This document shows, one piece after another, positions 6,746-42,090 of a DNA stretch of 64,000 bases. Source of the DNA: a bacterium (GTDB taxonomy: Bacteria; UBP6; JAFGXH01); contig JAMOQH010000157.1 of NCBI GenBank assembly GCA_027064085.1, positions 706-64,705 on the forward strand, read 5' to 3'. The notes below the pieces were generated by a model. That model worked only from the letters and a program-made list of their open reading frames with translations, was not told the DNA's origin and made no database searches. Every line of letters begins with the position of its first letter. Position 1 is the first letter of the stretch. A program made the position numbers and the translations under genes.

Positions 6746-9622
6746 ATGATTTGTCCTAATTGTGGCCATAAAGAAGATTATGATTTTTATATTTGTCCGA
6801 AATGCCAATACGATATTGATGTGGATATCAATAAAGATGACCCCGACTTTGATGATGAACTGGCAAGTGTTTTAGATGAACAAACCAATTATCAAATAGA
6901 TGCTAATGAATTAATGTTTGAGGAAGATACAAGTATCCGATATGATAATAATGTTATAGAAGAACTGGTTGATGATTTAATTGAAGAAAATAAGTCTCAA
7001 CTTGAAGTTAATCAGGTTTTCAACTTACATATTAATGAAAAAGATCTTATTGGTCGAGATGATGAACTAAATAAACTGTTATTATATTTTAAAAAAATAA
7101 GAGAAAATAATTCAGTAGCCTCCTTAACTGTAGTGAGCGAACATGGCCTTGGAAAAACTGATTTAATTTCATTATTTTTAAGAAAAATAAAATCTTCTGA
7201 CTCCACAATTATGATTATAGAAGCAACAGGATTAGGTAACACTAAAAATGAAGATTACTCTATTTTTAAATCAATACTTAAAAAACTAACCCAAATATCT
7301 GATTCTGATATTAGTGATATAAAAAAACAAAAACTAAAAGTTTTTTTAAAAGAATCAACTCCATTTCACCTATACCATGAATTAAAGGTTGTTTTTAGCC
7401 GATTATTAGAAATGAAAACAGAAAAAGATATTGAAGAAATGGATATAATGTCCTATGATAGACTTTTAAAAAGAAGCTTTAGGCAAATATTTAACTATTA
7501 CACATCTCAAAATATTTTTTTAATTTTAGCAATTAAAGATTTTCATAATATTGATATTAGATCTATAGAAATGATTGACTACTTTATGTCTTTACCAAAC
7601 TACAAGAATTTACTCTTTTTATTGACATCAGAATTAGAAGATAAAGTTCAAAGATTTTTAAAAGGAGAACATTCAAAAAGATTTTTTCTAAAGTTATTAC
7701 CCTTGACACAAGAAGATTCTGTAAAATTAGTTAAGCACATATTAAAAGATATTAAAAACTTAGAATTAGAAACTATAGAATTAATTGTAGCAAATACCAA
7801 AGGAACACCACTGCATATAAAAGAAAGCATTAGTTATTTAGTAAATTCAGGTGCAATTATTCAAAAAAACGGAAAATATACTGGAATTAATAAATTAGTA
7901 CTAAAAAGAATTCAGATTCCAATGACTTTTGAAGAAACAATCAGAGCTAAAATAGATAGATTATCTAAATTTGACTACTCTATTTTACAATTAGCATCAA
8001 TATCAGGAGAAATATTTAAATATAGCTATATAAAGTTACTTATAAATATTGATAACCTCGTTGTAAAAGAAGAAAATAAAATAAAATTGTGGAATACTAA
8101 AAATTTAGAAAATAAATTAAGTAAAACATTTGAAAATTTAATTAAAGAAGATGTATTAAAAAAACAAAAAGGGACTCTAAATGATCAAGAATACTTATTT
8201 AGTAATACAGTAGAACAAAAACTCATATATTCTACAATTCCGCCAAGATTAAAAAAAATATATCATGGATATTTAGCTCAATATTTAGAGTCTAAACTTG
8301 ATAAAAAAATGGAAAAAAACTTAGAACAATTATCGCTACAATATAAATTAGCATCAAATACATATCAAGCATCTAAATATTATTTTGTTGCAGCTAAAAA
8401 AGCTGAAGAAAGATATGCAAACCGAAGAGCCATAAAGTATAACTTAGAAGCATTAAACCTTCTTCCTGCTGAAAATGTACTAAACAGGCTTGAGGTATTA
8501 CATAACCTAGGCTCTTTATATACGCTTATTGGTAAAACAGAGGATTCTATAGTAACTTTTGAAGAAATGGTTCAACTTTCACAAATAATACTAAACAACA
8601 ATAAACTTGGAGCTGCATATAATAAGATAGGAAGAATCTATAGAGATATTGGTTCTCATAAAAAATCATCAAACTACCTAACCCTTGCTTACAATAGCTT
8701 TAGGATAGCAAAAGATAGAAGAGGTATTGCATCAACACTTGATGACTTAGGTCGCTTATATTGGCAACAAGGTAAATTTGAAGAGTCTCTAAAAAACTAT
8801 ATGAAATCTCTTGATATAAGAAAAAAACTAAACATGCCTAAGTCAATAGCATTATCATTAAACAATATTGGCTTACTATATTATTCTCAAGGCTTTGTTG
8901 ATGAAGCAGAGGAATATTTATTTGAAGCCTATAAACTAAGAAAACAAATTAAGGACAAACAAGGTGAAATGTCTTCTTTAAATAATCTTGCAATATTAAC
9001 AGATAATAAAGGAGACGACATTGAAGCAAGGGCATTATGGCTTAAATCTTTAACAATTGCAGAAGAAATAGGTGACATAAAATACCAAGCAACTTGTATG
9101 AATAATTTAGGCGGGCTGTTTATTGAAAGCAATAAGTACAATAAGGCACAAGACTATCTGAAAAATGCTTTAGAGATAGCTCTGGAATCCTCTAACAAGA
9201 GAATACTAGGATACATTTACCTTAATTTGGGTGAACTAAACTTAAAGCAACATAAAACATCTAATGCTAAAAAATATCTTGAGAGAGCATTTGAGCTTTC
9301 AGAAGAATCTGGAGATAAACAAGTCGCAGGAAGAGTTTATTGTTTATTTGGAGACATTGAGTCCGCTACACTATTTAATGATAATGGTGGTGATGGAGTT
9401 GCTCCAGCTGAAGATTATTACCTAAGAAGCTTAGATTTACTAAGAAAGGTATCTGAACCTTTAATGGCTGCAACAAATATCTCATATGCAGAATACTTAT
9501 TAAGCAAAGGCAAAAAAGGCAAAGCTAAAAAATTATTAAATCAAGCAGAAAATATATATCAAAATTACAATATGCAACTTAAATTATCTAAAATAAGAAG
9601 ATTAAAAAAAGATATACTATAG
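6746..9622 (+). CDS. zinc-ribbon + AAA_16 (STAND-like) P-loop NTPase + TPR-repeat signalling protein
   Basis: 958 aa. N-terminal double Cys pair 'CPNCGH...CPKCQY' (zinc ribbon), then an acidic linker. The AAA_16-type pattern 'LIGRDDELNKLLLYFKKIRENNSVASLTVVSEHGLGKTDLISLF' matches 'GRExEL...GExGxGKT'. The C-terminal ~400 aa read as tandem TPR-like repeats (e.g. 'LDDLGRLYWQQGKFEESLKNYMKSLDI', 'LNNIGLLYYSQGFVDEAEEYLFEAYKL'). A GGAGG-like RBS lies upstream. Confidence 0.6.
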   Translation: MICPNCGHKEDYDFYICPKCQYDIDVDINKDDPDFDDELASVLDEQTNYQIDANELMFEEDTSIRYDNNVIEELVDDLIEENKSQLEVNQVFNLHINEKDLIGRDDELNKLLLYFKKIRENNSVASLTVVSEHGLGKTDLISLFLRKIKSSDSTIMIIEATGLGNTKNEDYSIFKSILKKLTQISDSDISDIKKQKLKVFLKESTPFHLYHELKVVFSRLLEMKTEKDIEEMDIMSYDRLLKRSFRQIFNYYTSQNIFLILAIKDFHNIDIRSIEMIDYFMSLPNYKNLLFLLTSELEDKVQRFLKGEHSKRFFLKLLPLTQEDSVKLVKHILKDIKNLELETIELIVANTKGTPLHIKESISYLVNSGAIIQKNGKYTGINKLVLKRIQIPMTFEETIRAKIDRLSKFDYSILQLASISGEIFKYSYIKLLINIDNLVVKEENKIKLWNTKNLENKLSKTFENLIKEDVLKKQKGTLNDQEYLFSNTVEQKLIYSTIPPRLKKIYHGYLAQYLESKLDKKMEKNLEQLSLQYKLASNTYQASKYYFVAAKKAEERYANRRAIKYNLEALNLLPAENVLNRLEVLHNLGSLYTLIGKTEDSIVTFEEMVQLSQIILNNNKLGAAYNKIGRIYRDIGSHKKSSNYLTLAYNSFRIAKDRRGIASTLDDLGRLYWQQGKFEESLKNYMKSLDIRKKLNMPKSIALSLNNIGLLYYSQGFVDEAEEYLFEAYKLRKQIKDKQGEMSSLNNLAILTDNKGDDIEARALWLKSLTIAEEIGDIKYQATCMNNLGGLFIESNKYNKAQDYLKNALEIALESSNKRILGYIYLNLGELNLKQHKTSNAKKYLERAFELSEESGDKQVAGRVYCLFGDIESATLFNDNGGDGVAPAEDYYLRSLDLLRKVSEPLMAATNISYAEYLLSKGKKGKAKKLLNQAENIYQNYNMQLKLSKIRRLKKDIL

Positions 9623-9632
9623 GAGTAAATAA

Positions 9633-10370
9633 ATGCAAATATTAATAGGGACAGATAATCCAACATTTAGTCTAAAAAAATACACAGAACAATTTAATTT
9701 TTTAGAATATGGGGATACGTATAAAGCTTTTGTAAAAAAGAAAACTCTTTTAAATATAAGAAAAAAAGCTGGAGACAATTTTTCCTTTTCATTAAAAGCT
9801 CCATTATTTATTGCAGAAGACCAAGAAACAATAAAAAGATTTTCATCAAATGTTCCACTGCTAAACAAAGAAAGCTTAAGCAACTATGGATTATTCAAAA
9901 AAACGCAAGAAAATCAAAAACTTACAGAAATACTTATACAGGAAATTGAAAATTTAGATGCAGATGCTACAATTTTTTATACTTCTAACAAATTTCAACC
10001 TACCAAAGAAAACATTAAAAATATAAATCAATACTTTAAAGATTTAGGCTCATATCTAAAAAAAGATGACAGGGACCTATTTTGGACCCCTTTAGGTTTT
10101 TGGTCTCCAGATATCATTATGGAAGCATTAAAAGATACATCGGTTATTCCAGCTTATGATCCGCTCATAGATGAAATAGAAATAAACTCTCTTGTTAATT
10201 ATTTTGTAATGAGAGGACTAGGAAGATACTCAAAAGGATACTCTGATTCTGCTCTTGAAAACCTAGCCGAAATTATTTTCAATAAAGGCGTTGATACCTA
10301 TGTTGTTTTTCAAGGAACATATCAAGTTTCAAATGCAAAAAGATTCAACGAAATTATAAAATATTGGTAA
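9633..10370 (+). CDS. DUF72 (YecE-like) family protein
   Basis: 245 aa. 'ILIGTDNPTF...YTEQFNFLEYGDTYKAF...NFSFSLKAPLFI' parallels the YecE pattern 'IGLPQW...FNCVEGNTTLYALP...FRFCFKFPATI'. It starts 10 bp after the NTPase gene. Confidence 0.55.
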   Translation: MQILIGTDNPTFSLKKYTEQFNFLEYGDTYKAFVKKKTLLNIRKKAGDNFSFSLKAPLFIAEDQETIKRFSSNVPLLNKESLSNYGLFKKTQENQKLTEILIQEIENLDADATIFYTSNKFQPTKENIKNINQYFKDLGSYLKKDDRDLFWTPLGFWSPDIIMEALKDTSVIPAYDPLIDEIEINSLVNYFVMRGLGRYSKGYSDSALENLAEIIFNKGVDTYVVFQGTYQVSNAKRFNEIIKYW

Positions 10371-10374
10371 TAAT

Positions 10375-10860
10375 ATGAAAACAGCATTTACCTTACTTGA
10401 AGTTACAATTATAACAATGATTGTTGCTTTTTTAGTTATATCTACAAATTTTTTTAATAAGGAAATAGTTTCCAATAACATAAAAGGAGCTCAATTATCC
10501 TTAATGAAGTTATATAAAGCAGAGAAGCTGTACTTTAAAGAAAACAAAAAATACACAGATAATTTAGAAAAAATTTGGAAATATCAAAAAAGAATACCGG
10601 AATACCCTGTAACAATTGTAGATTTCAGAAAAAGAAGTTTGCATAAAGAAAAAGAACCTATCCTGCACTTCAGGATTGACCACTACTACATCGATATAAA
10701 AACCTCTGACAACAATCAAAAATTTAAAATAATTGCAAAGGTTCCTACTGCAGATAAACGCTCTAAAGAACTTCCAGTATTTACAATAAATAATGATAAA
10801 GAGAAAATGCCTAAAAGTAAAAATTTATGGTTAATAAATACTCAAAATGATGATGAATAA
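10375..10860 (+). CDS. prepilin-type N-terminal cleavage/methylation domain protein (type IV minor pilin / pseudopilin-like)
   Basis: The N-terminus 'MKTAFTLLEVTIITMIVAFLVIS' carries the FTLLE N-methylation motif plus a hydrophobic helix. Ala rather than Gly sits at -1. The protein is 161 aa and lies 4 bp after the DUF72 gene. Confidence 0.6.
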   Translation: MKTAFTLLEVTIITMIVAFLVISTNFFNKEIVSNNIKGAQLSLMKLYKAEKLYFKENKKYTDNLEKIWKYQKRIPEYPVTIVDFRKRSLHKEKEPILHFRIDHYYIDIKTSDNNQKFKIIAKVPTADKRSKELPVFTINNDKEKMPKSKNLWLINTQNDDE

Positions 10861-15739: not shown

Positions 15740-17065
15740 TCACGAGGAACATTCTATAAAAAAACCCAGCATTTCAATATCTGAAAAATAATTTGGATAT
15801 GATGATCCAAGATTCTTAACATTGACTATTTTAACTCTTTTATTTTTTTTCATCCCAAGCAAGGAAGCCCCCATAATAATCCTATGATCATCATGTGCAT
15901 CAATCTTTATATTATTTAAACTATCACTGCCCATGAAACGAAGTTTTGAATTAGTCATTTCAACATTTATCCCCATATTAATTAGGTTTTCATATAAAAC
16001 ACTTACCCTGTCTGTTTCTTTATAGCGAATTGACTCCAAATTAAGAAATTCATAATAATATGGATATTGAACAAGAAAAAAAACAAGTGCCGGCAACATA
16101 TCCGGAGTATCAGCCATGTCAAATACAGCACTTTTTTTTACATTTCCTATAAGATTTAAGATATTATTATTATAAGTATACTCAACTCCCAGTTTATTTA
16201 AAAAATGAAGAATTTTTTTATCTCCCTGAGCATCATTTAAATCCAAATTATGAATATTTATATCTCCCTCAGAAAGAACTGACGCAAGAATAACATAAGT
16301 AGCAGAAGAAAAATCACTTGGAACGGTAAATTCAAAATACTCCATCTTTCTAATAGGATTTATAATCATTTTTTTGTAATTATGATTTTTAATATTTACC
16401 CCTACTCTTTTCAGGTGAAATAAAGTCATGTCAACATAAGGTTTCTCACTTAATTCATCGATGTAAACAGTTGATTGTTCAGTTAAAAAAGATAAGCTCA
16501 ATAAAAGAGATGATAAAAATTGCGAAGATTTTCCTGAGATATGAGTAATTCCTGGTTTAATATTTTTTGTGATATAAAAAGGGATTTCTTTTTCTGTATT
16601 AAATCCATAGTCTAAACCAAGGGAGTGTAGAGATATTAATAATTTTTTTATTTTTCTTTTTCGTAATTGATTATCTCCATCTATTATAAGCTTTTGATTA
16701 TAAGATTTTAAATTACTGAAATATGTTACCATAAATCTTAATGCTGTTCCCGAATTTTTAAAGTTATAATTTTCTTTAATAATTAATTTGCGAGATTCTT
16801 TAATAAATAAAACATCATTTTTTTTATCAATACTGAATCCTAAGGATTTTATTATTTTTACAAAATTATCTACATCCTCACTTTTTAAAAGATTTTTTAT
16901 AATAGAGCTTTTACTATATAAAGATAACAATAATGCTCTAAATGAATGTGATTTAGATGGTGGTGGAAAATAATCACCTTTAACAAAACCTCTATTGCTC
17001 ACAGTAATTTCATTGAAGTCACTCAAAAAACGACCTCCAAAATCAAACGACATTAAATAAACCAA
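15740..17065 (-). CDS. aroA: 3-phosphoshikimate 1-carboxyvinyltransferase (EPSP synthase) AroA-like
   Basis: 'PPPSKSHSFRALLLS' corresponds to the AroA 'PGSKSxSNRALLLAAL' motif. 'GKSSQFLSSLLL' and 'SDFSSATYVILASV' are also present. The C-terminal 'AHDDHRIIMGASLLG...SSYPNYFSDI' matches the AroA 'DHRMAMxxSL...FPDYF' pattern. Confidence 0.75.
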   Translation of the reverse strand: MVYLMSFDFGGRFLSDFNEITVSNRGFVKGDYFPPPSKSHSFRALLLSLYSKSSIIKNLLKSEDVDNFVKIIKSLGFSIDKKNDVLFIKESRKLIIKENYNFKNSGTALRFMVTYFSNLKSYNQKLIIDGDNQLRKRKIKKLLISLHSLGLDYGFNTEKEIPFYITKNIKPGITHISGKSSQFLSSLLLSLSFLTEQSTVYIDELSEKPYVDMTLFHLKRVGVNIKNHNYKKMIINPIRKMEYFEFTVPSDFSSATYVILASVLSEGDINIHNLDLNDAQGDKKILHFLNKLGVEYTYNNNILNLIGNVKKSAVFDMADTPDMLPALVFFLVQYPYYYEFLNLESIRYKETDRVSVLYENLINMGINVEMTNSKLRFMGSDSLNNIKIDAHDDHRIIMGASLLGMKKNKRVKIVNVKNLGSSYPNYFSDIEMLGFFIECSS

Positions 17066-39102: not shown

Positions 39103-39351
39103 TTATTTACTCCATGCCAACAAGTTGGAGCTTATGTATAAAATATGAATTATTTAATTTAACATATTAAGTAAATCAATATTATTATAAAGAAAATGTT
39201 ATAATCCCACTGTAGTGGAGAGAAAATTATAAAAAATTATAAAAAAACTCTATTCAAAAGTTTTAAAGTATGATATATAAACTATCCGTCTATTTAAATA
39301 GACAAATTCAAGCATTTAATGTTTTAAACAATATATTTTTTAGGAGTCGCA

Positions 39352-40539
39352 ATGAATGAAAAAATTAAAAAAAATCTTGAAAGATTAAAAGAACTTAATA
39401 TTGATATGTTTGGTAAAGATTTTTTATTAACTTGGGAAAAAAGTGACGATGAAATCGAAGCGACTATGCTTTTTACTGAAATAATAAAAGAAATGCACAA
39501 AAATAACATCTCAACAAAGGTTTTTGATTCTGGTATTGCTGTTCCTGTATTTAGAGATAATTCTACAAGAACTAGATTTAGCTTTAGCTCAGCTTGTAAC
39601 GCTTTAGGTTTAGGCTTACAAGATTTAGATGAAAAAAAATCACAAATTGCTCATGGTGAAACTGTTAGAGAAACTGCAAATATGATATCATTTTTAGCTG
39701 ATGTTATTGGAATTCGTGATGACTTATATATTGAAGAAGGTGATAGATACCAAAGAGAAGTGGCTTCTGCATTAGATTTTGGCTACAATGAGGGATTATT
39801 ACACCAAAGACCAACTATAATTAATTTACAATCAGATATAGACCACCCAACTCAATCTATGAGTGATTTATCTAAAATTAAGGATCACTTTGGTTCTTTA
39901 GAAAATTTAAAGGGTAAAAAATTAGTAATGTCATGGGCATATTCACCAAGCTATGGAAAACCATTATCTGTTGCTCAAGGAATGATAGGTTTACTTACTA
40001 GATTTGGTATGGATGTTGTTTTGGCTCACCCTGAAGGATATAATGTAATGGATAGTGTTATTGATGTTGCAAAAGAAAATGCTGAAAAGAGTGGTGGTAG
40101 CTTTACTATTAGCCATGATATGAAAGAAGCATTTAAAGATGCTGATGTTGTATGTCCTAAATCTTGGGCTTCTTATTCTGTTATGGAGCAAAGAAGAGAT
40201 TTACTGCATGCACAAGACTTTGACGGACTTGATGCTCTTGAAAAAAGTTGCTTACTTGAAAATGCAGACCACATGAACTGGGAATACACCAAAGAAATGG
40301 AAGCATTAACTAATAATGCACTATACATGCATCCTCTTCCTGCTGATGTAACTGGCTTGAACTGCGAACACGGCGAAGTAACAAGAGAAGTTTTTGATTC
40401 TCACCTAAAAGATACTTATCATCAAGCATCATTTAAGCCTTTTGCTATGATGGCTATGATTTGGTTGAGTAAGTTTGAAAATCCTATAGCAAAAATAGAA
40501 GAAGTTTTAGAAAATAACAAAAAGAGATTAAATAAATAG
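39352..40539 (+). CDS. YgeW-like 'knotted' carbamoyltransferase (ATCase/OTCase superfamily)
   Basis: 'STRTRFSFSSA' carbamoyl-phosphate motif. 'HPLP' motif ('YMHPLPA'). 395 aa, longer than canonical OTCase/ATCase, as in the YgeW subgroup. Confidence 0.65.
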   Translation: MNEKIKKNLERLKELNIDMFGKDFLLTWEKSDDEIEATMLFTEIIKEMHKNNISTKVFDSGIAVPVFRDNSTRTRFSFSSACNALGLGLQDLDEKKSQIAHGETVRETANMISFLADVIGIRDDLYIEEGDRYQREVASALDFGYNEGLLHQRPTIINLQSDIDHPTQSMSDLSKIKDHFGSLENLKGKKLVMSWAYSPSYGKPLSVAQGMIGLLTRFGMDVVLAHPEGYNVMDSVIDVAKENAEKSGGSFTISHDMKEAFKDADVVCPKSWASYSVMEQRRDLLHAQDFDGLDALEKSCLLENADHMNWEYTKEMEALTNNALYMHPLPADVTGLNCEHGEVTREVFDSHLKDTYHQASFKPFAMMAMIWLSKFENPIAKIEEVLENNKKRLNK

Positions 40540-40595
40540 ATAATAGGCTTTTAACGATGATATTAGAGGCCTTGTTGATTTTTTAGGAGAAAAAA

Positions 40596-42062
40596 ATGGC
40601 AAAAAAAACAAGAGAAGAAGTTTTAGAAAACACTATTCAAAGATTTAAAGAAAAGGGACTTATTTTACCCACTTATGAACAAATGAGAAATCCTGAATTG
40701 GTTCCTCAAAAAATTAAAGAAGAGTTAAAAAATATTGGTTTATGGGACTTTAACCCTCTTAATTTATTCAGATTAACATGGAAGAACGATCCTGAAACAG
40801 GAGAATTTGGTAAAGTTAACTATATAGAACTTCCTACTGAATTAACAGGAGTTAAAGCTAAAATATTTGTATTAACTGGTAAATTTTTTCCTACAGGAGC
40901 ACATAAAGTTGGTGCAACTTATGGTCCACTAATAGAAAAATTAATTAATGGAACATTTGATCCAACAACTCAAAAAGCTTTATGGCCTTCTACAGGTAAC
41001 TATTGCCGTGGTGGAGCTTATGATAGTAAACTATTAGGATGTGAAGCTATAGCTATTTTACCCGAAGATATGTCTCAAGAAAGATTTGAATGGTTAAAAG
41101 AAACAGGTGCTGAAATTTTTGCAACTCATGGTTCTGAATCTAATGTTAAAGAAATTTATGACAAAGTTAAAGAATTAATGGCAGAGAGAGGTGATGAAAT
41201 AGTTAATCTTAACCAATTTGCAGAAATAGGAAATCCACTATGGCATTATGCAGTAACAGGGCCTGCTATGGAAGAAGTTTTTGGATACCATAAAGATGAA
41301 AACTCAAGATTTGCAGGTATTTTCTTAACTCAAGGAAGTGCAGGAACACTCGGTGCAGGTGAATACTTAAAAACAGTATTTCCTAATATGAAACTTGGTG
41401 TTGGTGAAGCTGTTCAATGTCCTACTTTATTAAGAAATGGATATGGTTCTCATAGAATAGAGGGAATAGGTGATAAACACATTCCTTGGGTACATAATAT
41501 TAGAAGTATGGACTTTGTTGCAGGTATTGATGATGAACCAAATATGCACATTATGCGTTTGTTCAATGAGCCTGAAGGACATAAATATTTATTAGAACAA
41601 GGTGTTAAACAAGAGTTAATTGACCAACTTCATTTACTTGGAATCTCTGGTATTGCAAATGTTATGGGTGCAATCAAACAAGCTAAATACTATGAAATGG
41701 ATGAAAATGATTTTATTCTTACTATAGGTACAGATTCTATGGAAATGTATCAATCAAGAATGAAAGAAGAACAAGAAAGATTAGGAGATTTTACTCATGA
41801 AGTAGCTGCTATGACTTATTATGGTGACTTAATGGGTTTAGGTACTGATAACATTATTGAGCCTAACTATGTTGAACTTAGAAGAATGCATAATTTAAAA
41901 TATTTTACTTGGATAGAGCAACAAGGTAAAACAGTTGAAGAGTTAGATGCTCAATGGTATGATAGAGATTATTGGACAAGAGAATGGCATAAAGCTGATG
42001 AGTGGGATGCCAAAATTAAAGAATTTAACGCTAGAACAGGTGTTGAAAAGAAATTTTTATAA
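40596..42062 (+). CDS. fold-type II PLP-dependent enzyme (TrpB-like / tryptophan-synthase-beta superfamily)
   Basis: 488 aa. 'FFPTGAHKVGATYG' resembles the TrpB PLP-lysine motif 'HTGAHKxN'. Gly-rich 'TQGSAGTLGAG' is present. 56-bp gap to the YgeW-like gene. Confidence 0.5.
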   Translation: MAKKTREEVLENTIQRFKEKGLILPTYEQMRNPELVPQKIKEELKNIGLWDFNPLNLFRLTWKNDPETGEFGKVNYIELPTELTGVKAKIFVLTGKFFPTGAHKVGATYGPLIEKLINGTFDPTTQKALWPSTGNYCRGGAYDSKLLGCEAIAILPEDMSQERFEWLKETGAEIFATHGSESNVKEIYDKVKELMAERGDEIVNLNQFAEIGNPLWHYAVTGPAMEEVFGYHKDENSRFAGIFLTQGSAGTLGAGEYLKTVFPNMKLGVGEAVQCPTLLRNGYGSHRIEGIGDKHIPWVHNIRSMDFVAGIDDEPNMHIMRLFNEPEGHKYLLEQGVKQELIDQLHLLGISGIANVMGAIKQAKYYEMDENDFILTIGTDSMEMYQSRMKEEQERLGDFTHEVAAMTYYGDLMGLGTDNIIEPNYVELRRMHNLKYFTWIEQQGKTVEELDAQWYDRDYWTREWHKADEWDAKIKEFNARTGVEKKFL

Positions 42063-42071
42063 TTATCTCCT

Positions 42072-42090
42072 CCCACTTGTGTGGGTTTTA
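42072..42090 (+). terminator. rho-independent terminator candidate
   Basis: CCCAC-TTGT-GTGGG hairpin followed by TTTTA, 10 nt after the PLP-enzyme stop. Confidence 0.5.

Follow-up and report, generated by a model that had tools for sequence, protein, structure and literature searches.

The 64,000-nucleotide stretch of contig JAMOQH010000157.1 analysed here (the window) carries on its forward strand two adjacent genes, which we read as a two-gene operon and as a portable piece of the anaerobic reductive uric-acid pathway, in which a pyridoxal-phosphate (PLP) enzyme of 488 amino acids (aa) would take the role of YgeX; we hold this reading with roughly even confidence. The first gene, ygeW (39352-40539, 395 aa), encodes a knotted-type carbamoyltransferase. 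The second (40596-42062, 488 aa) encodes a fold-type II PLP enzyme of the CysK/CBS/SbnA structural class (CBS, cystathionine beta-synthase), for whose family we use the working name PLP489. More broadly, the PLP489 family probably marks an undescribed variant of the last steps of anaerobic uric-acid degradation. The coordinates of both open reading frames (ORFs), the 56-bp gap between them (40540-40595) and the STRTR/HPLP and TGAHK motifs listed in an earlier note on this DNA were confirmed, and the variant carbamoyl/amino-acid conversion proposed there appears reasonable.

The product of the first gene scored above the cut-offs of both NCBIfam equivalog models for YgeW (NF005538, 615.4 bits against 453; TIGR03316, 602.5 bits against 500), whereas the models for ornithine carbamoyltransferase (OTCase), aspartate carbamoyltransferase (ATCase), acetylornithine carbamoyltransferase and putrescine carbamoyltransferase gave at most 126 bits. 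The protein aligns with E. coli YgeW along its entire length at 58% identity (395 aa, E = 2e-177), contains the Pfam domains OTCace_N and OTCace and shows the motifs STRTR (residues 71-75), HPTQ (165-168) and HPLP (327-330), the last of which is HCLP in the E. coli protein. As judged from these scores, it is a true YgeW orthologue and not an anabolic OTCase or ATCase, and the YgeW-type assignment of the earlier note, checked against the anabolic clades, held. The same note had called the substrate of YgeW debated, which is now outdated. Two studies from 2025 have shown that the substrate of the E. coli enzyme is 2,3-diureidopropionate, which arises in the reductive (2,8-dioxopurine) uric-acid pathway, and that one of its ureido groups is phosphorolysed; the carbamoyl phosphate so formed is turned into ATP by the carbamate kinase YqeA (bioRxiv 10.1101/2025.04.24.650524; PMC12507026). 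Only the order of cleavage is still disputed, that is, whether the first ureido group removed leaves albizziin or 3-amino-2-ureidopropanoate (PMC12990295): in the work of Li et al., the YgeW product detected was albizziin (PMC12507026), whereas Liu et al. assigned it as 3-amino-2-ureidopropanoate (bioRxiv 10.1101/2025.04.24.650524). The reaction is reversible (PMC12507026).

The second product matched in Pfam only the generic fold-type II PLP domain PF00291, and its lysine motif, TGAHK, lies at residues 100-104. Its best NCBIfam models were CysK, CysKM and CBS, at 97, 92 and 60 bits, with cut-offs of 351, 344 and 510. More specifically, the CysK-type equivalogs TIGR01139, TIGR01136 and TIGR01138 scored 96.8, 92.2 and 36.7 bits, far below their respective cut-offs of 351, 344 and 394. 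The SbnA model (34.7 bits, cut-off 350) and the cysteate-synthase model were also missed widely, the 2,3-diaminopropionate ammonia-lyase models gave 16-19 bits, and no TrpB model of NCBIfam matched at E <= 0.01. When profiles were compared by hhalign, the PLP489 family aligned with E. coli CysK at a probability of 98% (E = 1e-13, 234 columns), with E. coli YgeX at 45% over 46 columns and with E. coli TrpB at 0.4%.

Three candidate identities were rejected on these grounds. Orthology to YgeX (the TIGR01747/NF006058 family) is contradicted by the weak hidden Markov model (HMM) and hhalign results and by a BLASTP similarity to E. coli YgeX that is local and reaches 34 bits. Membership of the CysK/CysM family is contradicted by the missed equivalog cut-offs, although the structural class is the same, and the likeness to TrpB or TrpB2 is confined to the TGAHK lysine motif. 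The observation in the earlier note that the linked enzyme differs from, and is longer than, enterobacterial YgeX is thus borne out. Its label "TrpB-like" applies to the lysine pentapeptide, because profile and fold comparisons put the whole protein with the CysK class, and the classes that it named for checking (TrpB2-, OrtB- or threonine-synthase-like) give way, in HMM and profile classification, to a CysK/CBS/SbnA-like one.

The closest solved structures to PLP489 are cysteine synthases (E = 5e-19, residues 127-329). A first AlphaFold2 model, made with 16 close homologues, was poor (predicted local distance difference test, pLDDT, of 66.7) and was superseded by a second model, made with divergent full-length relatives (about 29-56% identity) from an exhaustive search of 50% representatives, with a pLDDT of 95.2 and a predicted template-modelling score of 0.94. 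Structure comparison gave the highest scores to the Fn1220 cysteine synthase (36.6), Arabidopsis OASTL-C (35.0), CapA1 (34.7), CmnB (33.7), CBS (33.3) and SbnA (32.5), followed by YgeX (24.7) and TrpB (24.3), with about 300 of the 488 residues aligned; DcsD, an O-ureidoserine synthase, was also among the Foldseek matches. The mostly helical N-terminal (about 1-75) and C-terminal (about 390-488) parts found no match in solved structures.

The catalytic elements of CysK, those that bind PLP and the carboxylate included, were all located in PLP489. K104 corresponds to K42 of CysK, the Asn loop S132-T133-G134-N135-Y136 to T69-T73, Q207 to Q143, G247-S-A-G-T251 to the GTGGT segment (G177-T181), and S351 to the GISS serine that contacts N1. 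Throughout the PLP489 family these positions, and likewise an unusual Cys137-Arg138 pair that immediately follows the Asn loop, show no or almost no variation. PLP489 therefore has the lysine, the Asn loop, the Gly-rich phosphate loop and the N1 serine by which a CysK-class fold-type II PLP enzyme is recognised. The predicted active site is an intact CysK-type site that appears suited to aminoacrylate chemistry, and PLP489 is a distinct family inside the CysK/CBS/SbnA structural class.

Across GTDB contigs, taking one genome per species, PLP489 was found in at least 598 species at 54-73% identity, including members of Cloacimonadota, Bacteroidales, Spirochaetota, Caldisericota, Lentisphaeria, Holophagae, Aminicenantes, KSB1, Synergistaceae, Elusimicrobia and others, and the family is very strongly conserved. 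Among database clusters, the best 120 share 69-100% identity with the PLP489 of the window, and the most specific labels among them are "pyridoxal-phosphate dependent enzyme" and "cysteine synthase", the latter being used by the pipelines of the Joint Genome Institute (JGI). The family goes unmentioned in the 2025 pathway papers and the commentary on them, in the 2008 selenium-trait papers and in a 2026 Prevotella preprint.

Gene context in other genomes was analysed by two scans, with neighbours counted within 8 kb in both. The PLP489-centred scan covered the best 80 loci of the at least 598 species, again with one genome per species; all ORFs of these loci were clustered, the recurrent ones annotated and the loci re-scored with the E. 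coli pathway proteins. The YgeW-centred scan covered 80 metagenome loci chosen by similarity to the YgeW of the window. Loci are cited below by L numbers where they have to be told apart. At least one homologue of the uricolytic cluster (YgfK, SsnA, HyuA, YgeY, xanthine dehydrogenase (XDH) subunits, carbamate kinase or YgeW) was present in 54 of the 80 PLP489 loci and a core uricolytic gene in 49; of the 39 loci whose flanks reach 5 kb or more on each side, 27 had a core gene. The most frequent neighbour was a threonine-synthase-like (ThrC-like) protein with an N-terminal zinc ribbon (32 loci, usually directly downstream), followed by YgfK (23), SsnA (22), a carbamoyltransferase (18), the XDH subunits (9-16 each), YgeY (14), a HyuA-like hydantoinase (13) and carbamate kinase (10); YgeX was found once. 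NCBIfam models confirmed the identities of YgfK (TIGR03315, 1227 bits), SsnA, YgeY, the hydantoinase-type amidohydrolase, XDH and carbamate kinase. The linkage of PLP489 to uricolytic genes recurs in at least eight phyla.

Seen from YgeW, PLP489 was nearby in 23 of the 80 metagenome loci and YgeX in nine, five of these nine being enterobacterial. Where flanks of at least 3 kb were available (36 loci), PLP489 was present in 11, YgeX in six, both in none and neither in 19. In Cloacimonadota, Bacteroidales, Holophagae, Spirochaetota, Lentisphaeria and others, the position of YgeX is usually filled by PLP489. Besides the window, seven genome and nine metagenome loci encode a true YgeW directly next to PLP489, with the same orientation and less than 300 bp between them, and the slot that PLP489 occupies beside ygeW is the ygeX position in E. 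coli; one further adjacency, in L040, places PLP489 beside an OTCase-like (OTC-like) carbamoyltransferase instead of YgeW. The pair is thus no isolated oddity: the adjacency recurs in 17 other loci from several phyla, and in most of the longer ones it is part of a full uricolytic cluster. In L007 the order is hyuA-ssnA-ygfK-ygeY-ygeW-PLP489-ThrC-like-xdh, and this locus, together with L019, L062 and L085, forms a set of complete-looking clusters with all known steps bar YgeX, that of L062 starting with a homologue of the urate permease gene uacT. In L087-L089, which contain the next-closest relatives of the window YgeW (74-75% identical), the order is ygfK-ygeY-ygeW-PLP489-carbamate kinase.

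Other proteins recur around PLP489. The ThrC-like protein has about 412 aa with an N-terminal CxxC...CxxC zinc ribbon (representative L039, 7062-8300; also L007, from 9487; L019, 9549-10838; L085, 12861-14081). It scores 183.6 against the cut-off of 167.1 of TIGR00260 (thrC) and pipelines will therefore name it threonine synthase; its neighbours, though, suggest that it takes part in urate degradation. Carbamoyltransferases of the OTC-like kind, 326-331 aa long and under all NCBIfam cut-offs, stand in for YgeW beside PLP489 in several loci (L040, 4489-5439 and 7079-8056; L020, 5580-6572; L001, L005, L022, L024, L032 and L077), and those of L001 and L040 adjoin carbamate kinase within uricolytic clusters. 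PLP489 of L040 lies between an ATCase-like and an OTC-like gene, with no YgeY within 15 kb, which may point to a variant with phosphorolysis of both ureido groups. In L027, a 433-aa protein with three RidA/L-PSP (enamine/imine deaminase) domains is encoded directly downstream of PLP489 (9497-10795), which fits the release of 2-aminoacrylate by PLP489. RidA proteins quench aminoacrylate, and this neighbour parallels the L-PSP gene of the E. faecalis cluster (PMC2432076). Finally, L070 has a ThrC-like gene beside a PLP489 homologue of 57% identity (8001-9443); its contig was binned into a metagenome-assembled genome of Hodarchaeota (an Asgard archaeon), which is either a transfer into archaea or a binning error.

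By orthology, the YgeW of the window would phosphorolyse a ureido group of 2,3-diureidopropionate to give carbamoyl phosphate, which a carbamate kinase can turn into ATP, and a mono-ureido diaminopropionate. PLP489 would then act as a CysK-class beta-eliminating or beta-replacing enzyme and do the PLP-dependent job of YgeX, the 2,3-diaminopropionate ammonia-lyase of E. coli and Clostridium: from the C3 amino acid left after ureido removal it would form aminoacrylate, which would go on to pyruvate and ammonia. Its most likely substrate would be 2,3-diaminopropionate itself, to whose formation a YgeY-type hydrolase, encoded elsewhere, would contribute, so that the net products would be pyruvate and two NH3. 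The simplest model is a non-orthologous replacement of YgeX by PLP489, which we favour because of the positional equivalence of the two genes, their near-exclusive distribution and the three-domain RidA protein that follows PLP489 in L027. The fold of PLP489, nearest to beta-replacement and beta-elimination enzymes that include SbnA and CmnB of diaminopropionate pathways, also supports this model. The gene structures, the family assignments, the conserved catalytic residues and the repeated linkage to uricolytic genes elsewhere are shown directly, whereas the substrate and the reaction of PLP489, and any further part of the pathway in this genome, are inferred.

Several observations weigh against this replacement model. 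No homologue of carbamate kinase, YgeX, YgeY, HyuA, SsnA, YgfK or XDH was found in the 64-kb window: tblastn searches with E. coli XdhA/B/C/D, YgeV/X/Y, HyuA, YqeA/B/C, MocA, YgfK/M, SsnA and UacT and with cluster representatives from other loci returned nothing beyond the ygeW-PLP489 pair, and Pfam annotation of the window from about 8 to 49 kb showed only unrelated housekeeping and envelope genes. The statement of the earlier note that only two genes are linked here was therefore correct for the whole window. The relatives L083 and L084, whose PLP489 is 90% identical, likewise have no uricolytic gene or carbamate kinase within 10 kb, and since the other pathway genes are absent from both settings, it is by homology that the pair is assigned to the pathway in this organism. 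In another relative (L086, 3161-4417), a YgeW that is 88% identical stands alone between dprA and tsaE with no PLP489 nearby, so that pathway genes can be scattered in this lineage. Across the PLP489-centred scan, 26 of the 80 loci lack a uricolytic neighbour, many of them on short contigs. YgeX and PLP489 lie side by side in two loci, L047 (6794-9373) and L123 (3-2500), the only such cases, and one-for-one redundancy is therefore not the whole story. The ThrC-like protein, present in 32 of the 80 loci, could be the real substitute for YgeX. CysK-class enzymes, moreover, normally act on L-amino acids, whereas the intermediates of the pathway have been proposed to be D (R)-configured (PMC12990295).

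A more direct route, which we consider unlikely, would need neither YgeY nor YgeX: YgeW would remove the 2-ureido group of 2,3-diureidopropionate to leave albizziin (2-amino-3-ureidopropionate), and PLP489 would beta-eliminate urea from it to give pyruvate and ammonia. The pair behaves as a conserved unit, kept in relatives with differing flanks and adjacent in 16 other loci plus the seventeenth with the OTC-like enzyme, and, among loci with a true YgeW, YgeY was nearby in all seven YgeX-type clusters as compared with 12 of 22 PLP489-type clusters (Fisher p of about 0.04-0.06), the large clusters L110 and L065 being without it. However, the YgeY statistic is small and its loci are not independent, and roughly half of the PLP489 clusters do have YgeY. 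The CysK family forms and breaks C-beta bonds to N or O substituents, ureido compounds included, with DcsD among the Foldseek matches, but urea is a poor leaving group, and no urease-type motif was found in any of about 160 loci searched. Albizziin was detected as the YgeW product by Li et al. (PMC12507026); if instead the product is 3-amino-2-ureidopropanoate, as assigned by Liu et al. (bioRxiv 10.1101/2025.04.24.650524), it could not be a substrate of a PLP enzyme, because its alpha-amine is blocked. That PLP489 catalyses an undescribed beta-elimination of urea from albizziin, by which YgeW and PLP489 alone would convert 2,3-diureidopropionate to pyruvate, ammonia, urea and one ATP-yielding carbamoyl phosphate, seems to us rather unlikely. 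It is quite improbable, in our view, that PLP489 has an accessory role, for instance as a racemase or epimerase, or as a subunit working with the ThrC-like zinc-ribbon protein, which would be the real diaminopropionate degrader. The ThrC-like gene is the commonest immediate neighbour (32 of 80, usually directly downstream), PLP489 and YgeX co-occur in L047 and L123, and a D configuration of the intermediates has been proposed (PMC12990295), all of which would suit such a role. On the other hand, PLP489 occurs without a ThrC-like gene in the window, in 48 of 80 genome loci and in 13 of the 23 metagenome loci that have PLP489, the reverse case was met just once in the YgeW-centred loci (L143), and two features usual in enzymes that form aminoacrylate, the contact of Ser with N1 and the Asn loop, are retained in PLP489.

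Given the context, both a biosynthetic role and a pure coincidence are unlikely. The nearest folds are those of biosynthetic beta-replacement enzymes (CysK, SbnA, CmnB and CapA1), the YgeW reaction is reversible (PMC12507026) and the window is without catabolic partner genes, so that PLP489 might make a beta-substituted alanine (diaminopropionate, cysteine or a related compound) by beta-replacement, and YgeW would use carbamoyl phosphate to carbamoylate an amine to a ureido amino acid. We find such a biosynthetic pair very improbable: the family-wide context is catabolic (XDH, YgfK, SsnA, hydantoinase and carbamate kinase), the YgeW is 58% identical to its catabolic E. coli orthologue, the SbnA, CysK and cysteate-synthase cut-offs are missed widely by PLP489, and no nonribosomal peptide synthetase, siderophore or other natural-product genes lie near the pair. 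It is hardly credible that PLP489 is an ordinary cysteine synthase or CBS of sulfur metabolism that lies beside ygeW by chance. The JGI label "cysteine synthase" and the rank of CysK and CysKM as best HMM matches speak for it, but the CysK score is 97 bits against a cut-off of 351, about 190 extension residues have no counterpart in CysK, and the uricolytic linkage recurs across at least eight phyla.

AroA of the window (15740-17065) is at most 46% identical to proteins outside its own lineage, then 33%, and about 30-33% identical to those of unrelated taxa; the host lineage, as far as this protein tells, is deep-branching. YgeW and PLP489, by comparison, share 70-75% identity with their counterparts in the full uricolytic clusters of the metagenome contigs L087-L089, and Cloacimonadota homologues of PLP489 reach 73%. 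Their G+C content is 32%, the window average being 26%. The high identity of the pair relative to AroA and its raised G+C therefore suggest that the module was gained laterally or is under very strong constraint. Probably the ygeW-PLP489 pair, which stands alone here, was acquired laterally as a unit.

Both genes are preceded by an AGGAG ribosome-binding site, at 39342-39346 for ygeW and at 40585-40589 for PLP489. The upstream control region (39237-39351, forward strand), which includes the first of these sites, also holds a perfect palindrome, GTCTATTTAAATAGAC, at 39288-39303, which reads GTCTA-N7-TAGAC in the relatives L083 and L084 and is probably an operator for some regulator. In both relatives, the approximately 115 nt before the ygeW ATG are nearly identical to those of the window despite a different upstream gene, which is an inositol monophosphatase in the window and a hemerythrin in L083 and L084. 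As the pair is kept while its upstream neighbour changes, and these approximately 115 nt are conserved with it, the conserved unit is the two-gene operon with its control region, in which we would place both promoter and operator. The Rfam scan upstream of ygeW gave only noise-level matches, with no riboswitch or known RNA, and the sigma-70 promoter scan showed no enrichment with respect to shuffled sequences and called nothing in the conserved upstream segment. The whole 64-kb window contains one tRNA only.

Two hairpins were found on the forward strand downstream of ygeW. Between the genes, a hairpin with a T-rich run (40545-40572; -10.6 kcal/mol, z = -1.8) was called terminator-like by the consensus scan, and L083 and L084 have a different, stronger hairpin at the equivalent position (L083, 7682-7715; -23.3 kcal/mol, z = -6.4); a possible function is that of an attenuator or an mRNA-stability element. 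At the end of the operon, a hairpin of sequence CCCAC-UUGU-GUGGG followed by UUUU (42072-42089; 5-bp GC stem, -8.1 kcal/mol, z = -2.2) has positionally equivalent counterparts with T-runs in the 90%-identical relatives L083 and L084. The earlier note had described a clean terminator here. The hairpin and T-run are present, in the relatives as well, but with a stem of 5 bp and only four U the element went uncalled by the consensus scan, its T-run falling short for that program.

Anaerobic breakdown of uric acid is relevant to gout and hyperuricaemia, and its pathway was elucidated as recently as 2025; genome surveys for it may misjudge taxa that have the PLP489 variant. One survey requires four of seven markers, among them YgeX, for which the threshold is 50% or more identity to its C. 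sporogenes counterpart (bioRxiv 10.1101/2025.04.24.650524). PLP489 cannot reach that identity. In another survey, SsnA neighbourhoods were coloured by any PF00291 protein (PMC12507026), which cannot separate YgeX, PLP489 and the ThrC-like protein. Among environmental anaerobes the PLP489 variant may be more common than the YgeX form, and in many of them this widespread, uncharacterised family probably completes the anaerobic urate pathway. With PLP489 characterised, the pathway would be complete in a large share of anaerobic life, and a new PLP reaction could come to light. Since PLP enzymes require a free alpha-amine, proof of the elimination from albizziin, if it does occur, would also settle the order in which YgeW cleaves the two ureido groups. 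The locus of the window, as a minimal two-gene version of the module, offers a clean test case, the gene pair itself being ordinary in structure.

In comparison with known systems, the locus is most like the E. coli ygeW-ygeX-ygeY-hyuA-yqeA module, in which a fold-type II PLP gene also lies directly downstream of ygeW on the same strand, and homologous pairs in other genomes are embedded, as in the uricolytic module of E. coli, among genes for YgfK, SsnA, HyuA, YgeY, XDH and carbamate kinase. It differs in that PLP489 is a CysK-class protein of 488 aa with superfamily-level similarity only to the 398-aa YgeX, and in that the window is without any other pathway gene, carbamate kinase or YgeV-type regulator. 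Many PLP489-type clusters, moreover, add the ThrC-like zinc-ribbon protein, and YgeY is missing from them more often than from YgeX-type clusters. With CysK, CysM, CBS, beta-cyanoalanine synthase and Fn1220, PLP489 shares the PLP lysine, the Asn loop (STGNY in place of TSGNT), the Gln of QF-NP, the Gly-rich phosphate loop and the N1 serine. Unlike this family, to which its identity is 20-25% with all family HMMs far under cut-off, it has TGAHK instead of SVKDR or SVKCR, the invariant Cys137-Arg138 after the Asn loop, structurally unmatched ends of about 75 (N-terminal) and about 100 (C-terminal) residues, and a context of purine catabolism rather than sulfur assimilation. SbnA, CmnB (VioB) and DcsD are, unlike PLP489, biosynthetic and use O-phosphoserine or O-acetylserine, and their partners SbnB, CmnK and Dcs are not found near PLP489. 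With TrpB and TrpB2 it shares fold type II and the resemblance of TGAHK to the HTGAHK of TrpB, but no trp genes lie nearby. In conclusion, the ygeW-PLP489 locus would work like the ygeW-ygeX part of the uricolytic cluster, with a PLP component that falls outside the YgeX, CysK and TrpB families.

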